From Tequatrovirus BCH953P2: 64,000 bases of DNA. The stretch lies in the sequence record OZ035785.1; one strand, written 5' to 3'. Numbering within the stretch: the stretch's first letter is position 1; every line of letters starts with the position of its first letter. A program made the position numbers and the translations under genes. Of this stretch, positions 40,070 through 41,031 are shown piece by piece. The notes under the pieces were generated by a model that worked only from the letters and a program-made list of their open reading frames with translations, did no database searches and was not told where the DNA came from.

Positions 40070-40146
40070 TGGTCAGGGTGAAAGGATTCTAACCTTTAAC
40101 CTGCGGTTTAGAGGACCGCTACTCTATACAATTGAGTTACACCCCG
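40070..40146 (-). tRNA. tRNA-like element, anticodon UCU (Arg) if folded as tRNA; atypical
   Basis: Hand fold: acceptor CGGGGTG/CACCCTG, anticodon stem GCGGT/ACCGC, loop CCUCUAA, T arm AAAGG-TTAGAAT-CCTTT, 3-prime CCA encoded; D loop lacks GG and position 33 is C. Confidence 0.35.
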
Positions 40147-40272
40147 TAATTAGTTCACAGCAATACCTACTCCAACAATCAAGATGTCTTCACACGAAAT
40201 TAAGAGAAGTGTGATCAGTTCAACCCCTATAATCGCGTCAAGTAGATATTAATGTGACAACTGTCACAAGTT

Positions 40273-40347
40273 TGGCGGACATGCATGGATTCGAACCATG
40301 GACCAATTGATTAACAGTCAACTGCTCTACCACTGAGCTACACATCC
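40273..40347 (-). tRNA. tRNA-Asn (anticodon GUU)
   Basis: Hand fold of reverse complement GGATGTGTAGCTCAGTGGTAGAGCAGTTGACTGTTAATCAATTGGTCCATGGTTCGAATCCATGCATGTCCGCCA; loop CUGUUAA; CCA encoded. Confidence 0.7.
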
Positions 40348-40351
40348 AAAT

Positions 40352-40438
40352 TGGTGGGGAGTGGTGGAGTCGAACCACCCGAGTCGCAATGACAATGAAT
40401 TTACAGTCCACCCCGCTACCCCTACCGGATAACTCCCC
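40352..40438 (-). tRNA. tRNA-Tyr (anticodon GUA), long variable arm
   Basis: Acceptor GGGGAGT/ACTCCCC, loop CUGUAAA, long variable arm, T arm GGTGG-TTCGACT-CCACC, CCA encoded; 5-prime end lies in a C12 run. Confidence 0.6.
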
Positions 40439-40458
40439 CCCCCCCCTAATTCTTAATT

Positions 40459-40533
40459 TGGTGGCCCTGGGTGGAATTGAACCACCATCTGGCGATTATG
40501 AGTCGCTTGCTTGAACCTTCCAGCTACAGGGCC
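40459..40533 (-). tRNA. tRNA with CAU anticodon (Ile2 lysidine-type or Met)
   Basis: Acceptor GGCCCTG/CAGGGCC, anticodon loop CUCAUAA, T arm GGTGG-TTCAATT-CCACC, CCA encoded. Confidence 0.6.
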
Positions 40534-40534
40534 T

Positions 40535-40610
40535 TGGTGCTGATTGACGGAATCGAACCGCCGACCTTCTCATTACAAGTGAGTTGCTCTACCTACTGAG
40601 CTAAATCAGC
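40535..40610 (-). tRNA. tRNA-Thr (anticodon UGU)
   Basis: Acceptor GCTGATT/AATCAGC, D arm GCTC-AGTAGGTA-GAGC, loop CUUGUAA, CCA encoded. Confidence 0.7.
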
Positions 40611-40615
40611 AAAAC

Positions 40616-40705
40616 TGGCGGAGGCGATAGGATTTGAACCTATGAGTCGCCGGAGCGACTGCCGGTTTTCAAGACCGGTGCATTAAACCACTCTGCCACG
40701 CCTCC
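40616..40705 (-). tRNA. tRNA-Ser (anticodon UGA), long variable arm
   Basis: Acceptor GGAGGCG/CGCCTCC, anticodon stem CCGGT/ACCGG with loop CUUGAAA, long variable arm, CCA encoded. Confidence 0.75.
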
Positions 40706-40707
40706 AG

Positions 40708-40781
40708 TCTCCGCGGCAGGATTTGAACCTACGACATTCTGCTCCCAAAGCAGACGCTCTACCAAACTGAGCTACACGGAG
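40708..40781 (-). tRNA. tRNA-Pro (anticodon UGG)
   Basis: Acceptor CTCCGTG/CGCGGAG, anticodon stem TCTGC/GCAGA, loop UUUGGGA; CCA not encoded; 2 nt spacer to tRNA-Ser. Confidence 0.7.
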
Positions 40782-40791
40782 TAAATTAAAT

Positions 40792-40865
40792 TGGAGCGGA
40801 TAATGAGAATCGAACTCACATCATCAGATTGGAAGTCTGAGGTAATACCATTATACGATATCCGC
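40792..40865 (-). tRNA. tRNA-Gly (anticodon UCC)
   Basis: Reverse complement GCGGATATCGTATAATGGTATTACCTCAGACTTCCAATCTGATGATGTGAGTTCGATTCTCATTATCCGCTCCA; loop CUUCCAA; agrees with remembered T4 tRNA-Gly. Confidence 0.8.
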
Positions 40866-40870
40866 AAATT

Positions 40871-40957
40871 TGGTGCGAGAAGTGGGACTCGAACCCACAA
40901 GGAAATCATTCCGCAGCATTTTAAGTGCTGTGCCTTTACCAATTTGACCATTCTCGC
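40871..40957 (-). tRNA. tRNA-Leu (anticodon UAA), long variable arm
   Basis: Acceptor GCGAGAA/TTCTCGC, anticodon stem CAGCA/TGCTG with loop CUUAAAA, long variable arm, CCA encoded. Confidence 0.75.
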
Positions 40958-40958
40958 G

Positions 40959-41031
40959 CTGGGAATAAAGGACTCGAACCTTTGCATCTAGCAGTCAAAG
41001 TGCTATGCCTTACCAACTTGGCTAATTCCCA
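40959..41031 (-). tRNA. tRNA-Gln (anticodon UUG)
   Basis: Reverse complement begins TGGGAATTAGCCAAGTTGGTAAGGCATAGCACTTTGACTGCTAG, agreeing with remembered T4 tRNA-Gln; CCA not encoded; 1 nt spacer to tRNA-Leu. Confidence 0.8.

Follow-up and report, generated by a model that had tools for sequence, protein, structure and literature searches.

A ten-gene tRNA cluster with tRNA-Tyr and tRNA-Asn in Tequatrovirus BCH953P2, a known variant of the T-even tRNA region next to a candidate homing endonuclease gene

Results

Ten tRNA Genes in One Cluster of the BCH953P2 Genome

A stretch of 64,000 nucleotides (nt) of Tequatrovirus BCH953P2 (sequence record OZ035785.1; G+C 35%), referred to here as the window, contains a cluster of ten tRNA genes at positions 40070-41031 of the minus strand. 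By analogy with phage T4, these are very probably ten functional and co-transcribed genes which would help to decode codons over-represented in the AT-rich phage, and they represent an already annotated variant of the Tequatrovirus tRNA cluster. Throughout the whole window, ARAGORN predicts exactly ten tRNA genes, all of them on the minus strand of this interval, and in the order of transcription they are Gln(UUG), Leu(UAA), Gly(UCC), Pro(UGG), Ser(UGA), Thr(UGU), a tRNA with the anticodon CAU, Tyr(GUA), Asn(GUU), and Arg(UCU). The Rfam family RF00005, with a gathering threshold of 29 bits, independently recovers all ten, nine with scores of 59.3-72.9 bits and tRNA-Tyr with 34.6 bits. An eleventh tRNA gene is found in the 64 kb by neither ARAGORN nor Rfam. 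A permissive Rfam search of positions 39100-41200 adds only sub-threshold chance matches (Plastid-ycf2, sX4, YrlA, and tRNA-Sec over the Tyr gene).

These genes had been proposed by an earlier sequence-only reading of the window, and ARAGORN agrees with its ten anticodons and outer coordinates, including GUA and GUU for Tyr and Asn, two genes that Rfam accepts as well. That reading had stated that the members of the Gln-Leu and Pro-Ser pairs are separated by 1-2 nt and lack an encoded CCA. The spacing is correct; the CCA is missing only from the upstream members Gln and Pro, whereas Leu and Ser encode it. Host CCA addition is therefore needed by only two of the ten tRNAs.

Judged from its sequence, the window is part of the genome of a Tequatrovirus, a T4-like coliphage, and the locus is its tRNA region. 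This assignment is made because megablast matches are mostly to T4-like coliphages and because the flanks are collinear with T4. When positions 39000-41600 (2.6 kb) were compared with 50,697 phage records by megablast, 1040 records matched, nearly all of them T4-like coliphages. The highest-ranking matches are to Escherichia phages REP2 and REP3, at 97.8% along the entire 2.6 kb, and to UFV-AREG1, LF82-9, and sutha; at least 80% of the query is covered in ten phage records. The T4-collinear flanks comprise trna.2/3/4, genes for internal head proteins, 57B, 57A, and gene 1, with open reading frames (ORFs) of the e-region downstream. According to alignments with T4, REP2, and Aplg8, the cluster occupies the site that is usual for T-even phages, between the trna.2/3/4-ipI genes and the e-region on the strand of the early genes. 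It also follows the T-even order, Gln-Leu-Gly-Pro-Ser-Thr-CAU and further on Arg, then the small stable RNA genes rnaD and rnaC, and it has the arrangement of dimeric precursors, with gaps of 1 nt between Gln and Leu and of 2 nt between Pro and Ser.

Codon Usage of Phage and Host Genes

Codon usage was compared between 88 non-overlapping ORFs of the window and the annotated genes of Escherichia coli K-12 in a 50-kb region with ribosomal-protein operons. Frequencies are given per 1000 codons in the order plus-strand (late) ORFs of the phage, highly expressed E. coli genes, and other E. coli genes; the plus-strand ORFs correspond to baseplate and tail genes by collinearity with T6. For the tyrosine codons TAT and TAC together, the values are 47.9, 18.6, and 25.0, and for the asparagine codons AAT and AAC together 71.7, 34.1, and 42.7. 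The values for single codons are given for AGA (15.9, 1.0, 2.8), ATA (15.9, 0.2, 6.0), GGA (32.3, 1.2, 8.0), TTA (33.0, 2.5, 15.1), TCA (23.1, 1.7, 10.5), and ACA (27.7, 2.9, 11.5). The anticodons encoded in the cluster thus match codons or amino acids that are used about two- to many-fold more by the phage than by its host; the sequence-only reading had proposed this comparison, and the enrichment fits the classic explanation of codon supplementation.

The features of the cluster and of its surroundings are compiled in Table 1.

Table 1. Features of the tRNA region of Tequatrovirus BCH953P2, with positions in the window
Feature	Position	Strand	Remarks
tRNA-Gln (UUG)	40958..41031	-	66 bits; no encoded CCA, one C before Leu; identical to T4
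tRNA-Leu (UAA), class II	40871..40957	-	CCA encoded; identical to T4
tRNA-Gly (UCC)	40792..40865	-	CCA encoded; identical to T4
tRNA-Pro (UGG)	40707..40781	-	67.5 bits; no encoded CCA; CT (2 nt) before Ser; diverged allele
tRNA-Ser (UGA), class II	40616..40705	-	CCA encoded; body identical to T4
tRNA-Thr (UGU)	40535..40610	-	72.9 bits; CCA encoded; 3 substitutions relative to T4
CAU tRNA, tRNA-Ile2 type (predicted)	40459..40533	-	CCA encoded; allele as in RB51, REP2, Aplg8
G12 run, read on the tRNA strand (plus strand: C12)	40435..40446	-	directly 5' of and into Tyr
tRNA-Tyr (GUA), class II	40352..40438	-	34.6 bits; long variable arm, A73, CCA encoded
tRNA-Asn (GUU)	40273..40347	-	72.6 bits; G73, CCA encoded; identical to REP2 and RB51
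Asn-Arg spacer, 126 nt	40147..40272	-	common to wV7/Aplg8-type clusters, there ahead of tRNA-His
tRNA-Arg (UCU)	40070..40146	-	60.7 bits; full cloverleaf, A73, CCA encoded
ORF184, 184 amino acids, T5orf172/MUG113 (GIY-YIG superfamily)	39494..40048	-	candidate free-standing homing endonuclease; last 26 nt overlap the start of rnaD
rnaD homologue (T4 "species 2" small stable RNA)	39402..39519	-	about 97% identity to T4
rnaC homologue (T4 "species 1" small stable RNA)	39257..39395	-	tRNA-like T-arm
Intrinsic-terminator-like hairpin and T run, closing the RNA cluster	39183..39206	-	same site annotated as putative terminator in Aplg8

Identity of the CAU tRNA

The tRNA with the CAU anticodon seems to be of the tRNA-Ile2 (lysidine) type, which should read AUA once its anticodon has been modified to lysidine, a step presumed here from the gene sequence. 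Among 5,423 E. coli genomes, the gene that matches it best, at 81.6% along its whole length, is annotated by RefSeq as tRNA-Ile and likewise has the anticodon CAU. Both share an identical anticodon stem-loop of 17 nt (AGCGACTCATAATCGCC) and A73. The acceptor stem GGCCCTG (GGCCCTT in E. coli) pairs with CAGGGCC; C4-G69 and C5-G68 in the acceptor stem are described as an identity rule of tRNA-Ile2. In the records of REP2 and RB51 the CAU copies are labelled Ile. An elongator or initiator tRNA-Met, as suggested by the ARAGORN label "Met", is ruled out by the full-length match to the E. coli tRNA-Ile with CAU anticodon.

The tRNA-Arg Allele

The sequence of tRNA-Arg is related neither to the Arg gene of T4 nor to that of Aplg8, which makes it a third allele. 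Its T-loop is TTAGAAT, with A56, and its D-loop is AATTGTATA, with U19, so that the near-universal tertiary pair G19:C56 would become U19:A56 in a compensated double change. As far as sequence can tell, such compensation argues for function rather than for decay. The allele recurs, with 99-100% conservation, in teqskov, LF82-9, REP2/3, sutha, and UFV-AREG1, and it is also present, unannotated, in the Gaprivervirus phages VR7 and VR26. The gene had earlier been described as an atypical Arg(UCU)-like element; its T-loop and D-loop are indeed unusual, but it is a full tRNA gene with a complete cloverleaf. A pseudogene-like element is ruled out by the 60.7 bits in Rfam, by the 99-100% conservation in nine records, and by the compensated tertiary pair.

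tRNA-Tyr and Its Private G12 Variant

In the ARAGORN drawing, tRNA-Tyr has the traits of a bacterial tRNA-Tyr, i.e., the anticodon GUA, a long variable arm with a 3-bp stem, and A73. The gene was aligned with 11 homologues from Tequatroviruses, Jiaodavirus, Karamvirus, Vequintavirus, Certrevirus, Felixounavirus, T5-like phages, and two phages without genus. In the cloverleaf of these 12 sequences, 96% of the cells are in standard pairs and 14 of 24 pairs have changed on both sides. None of 500 shuffles reaches the observed values, and sliding the partners by 1-3 columns gives 42-57% pairing. Covariation extends to every helix, that of the variable arm included. The Tyr family is therefore a real and structurally constrained tRNA. 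Its variable arm in BCH953P2 (TGTCATTGCGACTCG) is the same in T6 and in the T5-like phages GSP044 and EASG3.

The copy of BCH953P2 is distinguished by the run of 12 G, the sole homopolymer of at least eight residues in the window. Relative to related phages, this run reflects eight extra bases in the spacer between the CAU tRNA and Tyr, and four of its residues are positions 1-4 of Tyr. Three substitutions (40412, 40421, and 40426) are private with respect to REP2, T6, RB51, Aplg8, LF82-9, and UFV-AREG1; all are changes to G, lie in the D-arm, and are at most 27 nt away from the run. A query with the Tyr-Asn segment at an identity of at least 99% gave no match in the 50,697 phage records. The exact Tyr variant was also absent from IMG/VR and Joint Genome Institute (JGI) metagenome contigs in a pattern scan, and a degenerate Tyr pattern retrieved two contigs from IMG/VR, each of which carries the standard sequence of the T6 type. 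In combination, two of the three changes permit a shifted, perfect D-stem of 4 bp which is possible only in BCH953P2. The changes raise the Rfam score, which is 30.2 bits for the Tyr gene of Aplg8 and below threshold for those of REP2 and RB51. The G12 form could be genuine and private to this phage, or it could be an artefact of sequencing at a homopolymer.

ORF184 and the Cassettes Downstream of tRNA-Asn

Downstream of tRNA-Arg, ORF184 matches PF13455 (MUG113) with 38 bits and PF10544 (T5orf172) with 27.9 bits, both above the respective cut-offs, and phrog_5032, of unknown function, over its full length. An alignment of 13 sequences reveals conserved GIY-YIG-like residues (VYIM, YKIGRS, Arg109, Glu137, His141, and Glu152). 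The AlphaFold model has a pLDDT (predicted local distance difference test) of 90.4; by itself, a structure search with Foldseek was not significant, and no experimental data on the phrog_5032 protein family were found. The ORF184 type occurs in four genera and is always encoded directly 3' of tRNA-Arg; homologues lie 3' of tRNA-Arg(UCU) in Gaprivervirus (VR7 and VR26), Winklervirus (X20), and Jiaodavirus (KpV477). From Arg to rnaC, BCH953P2 and VR7 are 93.7% identical, and the genes upstream are about 80% identical. Of 251 matching records, only 18 contain the Arg-ORF184 cassette in full, and T4, Aplg8, RB51, and T6 lack it. For other phages, genes of the T5orf172 type are described in the literature as homing endonuclease genes and as markers of recombination boundaries (PMC10448857).

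Between the Asn spacer and rnaD lies a hot-spot for cassettes, and three unrelated ones are found there in different phages: segB with Arg in T4, His with Arg and a small ORF in Aplg8/wV7, and Arg with ORF184 in BCH953P2. In Aplg8, the gap of 364 nt between tRNA-Arg and rnaD (2022-2385 of the Aplg8 stretch) contains a putative unannotated ORF that starts with ATGAAAGGTAATGTT, and this would therefore be a third kind of cassette at the locus. At 39520-39525, after ORF184 and just before rnaD, the hexamer ATACCA is identical to the 3' end of the T4-type tRNA-Arg. This may be a remnant, in which case the Arg-ORF184 cassette would have displaced an Arg gene of the T4 type.

SegB recognizes the T-arm motif GGTTCRANTCC, and tRNA-Asn is its preferred site (PMC2330249). 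Here, eight of the ten tRNA genes contain the motif, as does rnaC (9 matches versus 0.08 expected), whereas Gly and Arg lack it. The T-arm of the rnaC homologue, CCGGGTTCAAGTCCCGG, fits the core of this motif and differs from that of T4, GGTTCGAATCC, at two positions of the loop. Neither rnaC nor rnaD belongs to an Rfam family.

The spacer of 126 nt between Asn and Arg is not a degenerate tRNA according to ARAGORN and Rfam, and neither an RNA family nor a promoter was found in it. With a fold z of -2.1, and with 8 of 200 shuffles folding as well, it is unconvincing as a structured RNA. It opens with a perfect hairpin of 7 bp (TGTGACA GT TGTCACA).

Discussion

Probable Codon Supply and Its Alternatives

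The ten genes of BCH953P2 are best explained as a functional tRNA set for codon supply. Following what is known from T4, a polycistronic precursor would be transcribed from promoters upstream of Gln and cut by host RNase P and 3' processing enzymes, including RNase BN. Gln-Leu and Pro-Ser would be released as dimeric precursors whose upstream members receive their CCA from the host CCA-adding enzyme, and the mature tRNAs would then be charged by host synthetases. They are expected to supplement the decoding of the A-ending codons TTA, GGA, TCA, ACA, ATA, and AGA, whereas CAA and CCA are enriched only when compared with highly expressed host genes. Tyr and Asn would add capacity for residues which are about twice as frequent in late phage genes as in E. 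coli.

Several points weigh against this explanation. Expression, processing, and charging in BCH953P2 are all extrapolated from the biology of T4, and a scan for sigma-70 promoters returned 4 sites versus 5.8 expected by chance, so that no promoter is claimed. The codon enrichment is a correlation and no proof of function, and histidine codons are not enriched in the phage, yet related phages encode a tRNA-His. The remaining points concern tRNA-Tyr, which reaches only 34.6 bits in Rfam. One of its private substitutions, from C to G, breaks a D-stem pair that is kept in 11 of 11 other family members (columns 13-15 with 26-28), and the leader of 12 G could disturb folding or cleavage by RNase P.

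These features of tRNA-Tyr might alternatively mean that this copy is damaged or mis-sequenced, by errors of base calling or assembly or by recent slippage, and that its true or ancestral form is that of T6 and REP2. Such an origin, which we judge unlikely although worth keeping in mind, would account for the only long homopolymer in 64 kb of DNA with 35% G+C, for three substitutions that are all to G and within 27 nt of it, for their lack in six close relatives and in the phage, IMG/VR, and JGI sequences searched, and for the broken D-stem pair. However, two of the changes jointly build a perfect shifted D-stem and the score rises above those of relatives, which is unexpected of random errors. 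Somewhat less doubtful, and possible without being the favored view, is that the extra tRNAs, Tyr above all, are kept mainly as a counter-defence against systems such as Septu PtuAB and retron-Eco7, by replacing or diluting cleaved host tRNAs; this is compatible with codon supplementation. Septu cleaves tRNA-Tyr in its variable loop, and over-expressed or amplified T6 tRNA-Tyr restores infection (PMC13096335, 2026). T4, which has no tRNA-Tyr gene, is unable to escape Septu, and expression of T6 tRNA-Tyr has been detected by northern blot (PMC13096335). Similarly, the tRNA-Tyr of T5 protects against retron-Eco7 (PMC11555353). The BCH953P2 gene agrees with T6 tRNA-Tyr at 84 of 87 positions and has the variable arm of T6, GSP044, and EASG3. 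Yet Septu cleaves T6 tRNA-Tyr as well (PMC13096335), a single copy of it is insufficient, and escape required an amplification driven by SegB, whose gene is lacking in BCH953P2. Moreover, a literature search found no report of a tRNA-targeting defence that acts on Asn, and Tyr and Asn codons are truly enriched in the phage.

Quite unlikely, in contrast, is that the composition of the cluster is mainly a by-product of selfish DNA, with tRNA alleles hitchhiking in and out on cassettes of homing endonucleases (SegB in T4 and T6, T5orf172 here) under little selection on each tRNA. Such a view is suggested by the three unrelated cassettes between the Asn spacer and rnaD in different phages, by a breakpoint of T4 inside the CAU tRNA gene, by a T6 Thr gene with a Pro-like 5' end, by the SegB T-arm motif on eight of ten tRNAs (PMC2330249), and by T5orf172 genes at recombination boundaries elsewhere (PMC10448857). 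Diverged alleles such as Pro and the Tyr family, however, keep their structure by compensatory changes, which indicates purifying selection on function and not neutral passage, and the Gln-Leu-Gly core is identical across distant isolates. A related proposal, which we regard as improbable to a similar degree, holds that 639 bp (39517-40155) with Arg and ORF184 form an uncharacterized free-standing homing cassette that would target the tRNA-Arg/rnaD junction of T-even-like phages and bring along a replacement Arg resistant to cleavage. The change of C56 to A in Arg, compensated by that of G19 to U, removes the SegB motif and would in this way make the allele resistant. Codon supply by functional tRNAs thus remains the preferred explanation, and the differences from T4 are attributed to T-even phages swapping tRNA alleles and endonuclease cassettes in a mosaic fashion. 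The tRNA-Tyr gene belongs to a family with a documented second role, beside supplementation, against defences that cleave tRNA-Tyr. The link of this family to escape from Septu and retron-Eco7 is relevant to the host range of phage-therapy candidates.

Novelty and Significance

The ten-gene variant is already annotated in many sequenced relatives and is an ordinary finding. Any novelty of the configuration is dispelled by RB51, T6, wV7, REP2, and several hundred other records which already annotate such genes. In REP2, UFV-AREG1, and LF82-9, the same ten tRNAs are annotated in the same order, followed by the same ORF of 555 nt. RB51 (FJ839693) annotates tRNA-Tyr(GUA) and tRNA-Asn(GUU), with the remark "conserved in RB14". 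The Tyr-Asn segment is matched over at least 80% of its length by 383 phage records, among them wV7, RB6, slur phages, and Aplg8. The tRNA regions of T2L, RB1, and RB3 were sequenced in a study of 2008 and contain tRNA-Asn (PMC2330249). As T-even tRNA clusters have been studied since the 1970s, the discovery value is little, and the result is useful as annotation. The locus is also a clear example of the mosaic exchange of tRNA alleles around genes of the homing-endonuclease type, and two leads deserve note, namely the GIY-YIG/T5orf172 cassette, for the unusual tRNA-Arg that it contains, and the odd poly-G form of Tyr.

Comparison With Known Clusters

In the T4 reference (NC_000866) the order is Gln-Leu-Gly-Pro-Ser-Thr-Ile, segB, Arg, rnaD, rnaC, and exactly eight tRNAs are listed (Gln, Leu, Gly, Pro, Ser, Thr, Ile, and Arg), as the sequence-only reading had stated. 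Position, strand, and gene order are shared with BCH953P2. In gene-by-gene alignments Gln, Leu, and Gly are identical, and the body of Ser is identical as well, with CCA after the discriminator in BCH953P2 versus TAA in T4. The Gln-Leu and Pro-Ser pairs of T4 are likewise 1-2 nt apart with an upstream member lacking CCA, and the two phages agree at about 97% in rnaD, rnaC, and the terminator. In contrast, Pro differs from the Pro of T4 and REP2 by 12 substitutions, which relative to T4 compensate one another in the anticodon stem (C-G to U-A and A-U to C-G) as well as in the stems of the T-arm and the acceptor. The CAU tRNA has only its first 12 nt and the anticodon loop in common with T4 tRNA-Ile and, in BCH953P2, encodes its CCA; the breakpoint of homology with T4, at 40514, falls within this gene. 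Between the Arg genes of the two phages, similarity is undetectable. BCH953P2 lacks segB, carries Tyr and Asn, which are not in T4, between the CAU tRNA and Arg, and has a T5orf172 gene, also not in T4, between Arg and rnaD. The remodelled set with two additional isoacceptors that had been proposed is thus correct in that Tyr(GUA) and Asn(GUU) are present beyond the eight of T4, but both are extra amino acid specificities and not isoacceptors. Two additions also understate the remodelling, since the CAU, Arg, Pro, and Thr alleles differ, Ser and the CAU tRNA gain a CCA, and segB is gone.

Like ORF184, SegB of T4 is encoded by a GIY-YIG-superfamily gene within the tRNA cluster, and ORF184 is similarly sporadic and located at a mosaic boundary. 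ORF184 differs in belonging to another subfamily (T5orf172/MUG113), in lying after Arg and not before it, and in having an N-terminal helical domain, and its role as a nuclease is predicted from its sequence.

T6 carries a Tyr gene identical to that of REP2, and the BCH953P2 gene is in the same family and has the same variable arm as the experimentally tested genes of T6 and T5. There is no segB beside Tyr in BCH953P2, so the amplification route of T6 would be unavailable, and an anti-defence role is a prediction for this phage. The gene annotated as tRNA-Thr in T6 (648-722 of the T6 stretch) begins with the 5' end of a tRNA-Pro (TCCGTGTAGCTCAG), which suggests that T6 may have lost Pro and Ser by a deletion, via recombination between conserved D-arm segments of Pro and Thr.

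In RB51/RB14 and in clusters of the wV7/Aplg8 type, Tyr(GUA) and Asn(GUU) follow directly after the CAU tRNA, as in BCH953P2. The Asn of RB51 is identical to that of BCH953P2, and its Tyr is of the T6/REP2 form save one base of the T-stem; RB51 has a truncated segB-like gene where BCH953P2 has Pro, and an Arg of its own. Aplg8 and wV7 have an added tRNA-His, another Arg allele, and a small ORF, and they lack ORF184.

The closest likeness is with REP2/REP3, UFV-AREG1, LF82-9, sutha, and 236Ecol005PP, in which the ten genes and ORF184 are in the order of BCH953P2 with 96-98% identity over 2.6 kb. UFV-AREG1 differs from BCH953P2 by a CAU allele of the T4 type. REP2 and BCH953P2 carry different Pro alleles and Thr genes that are 3 substitutions apart, and the G12 run and the three D-arm changes of Tyr are private to BCH953P2. 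The Arg-ORF184 cassette is 99.4-100% identical between BCH953P2 and these REP2-type clusters of ten tRNAs, and the layout as a whole places BCH953P2 in the REP2/UFV-AREG1 group of Tequatrovirus.

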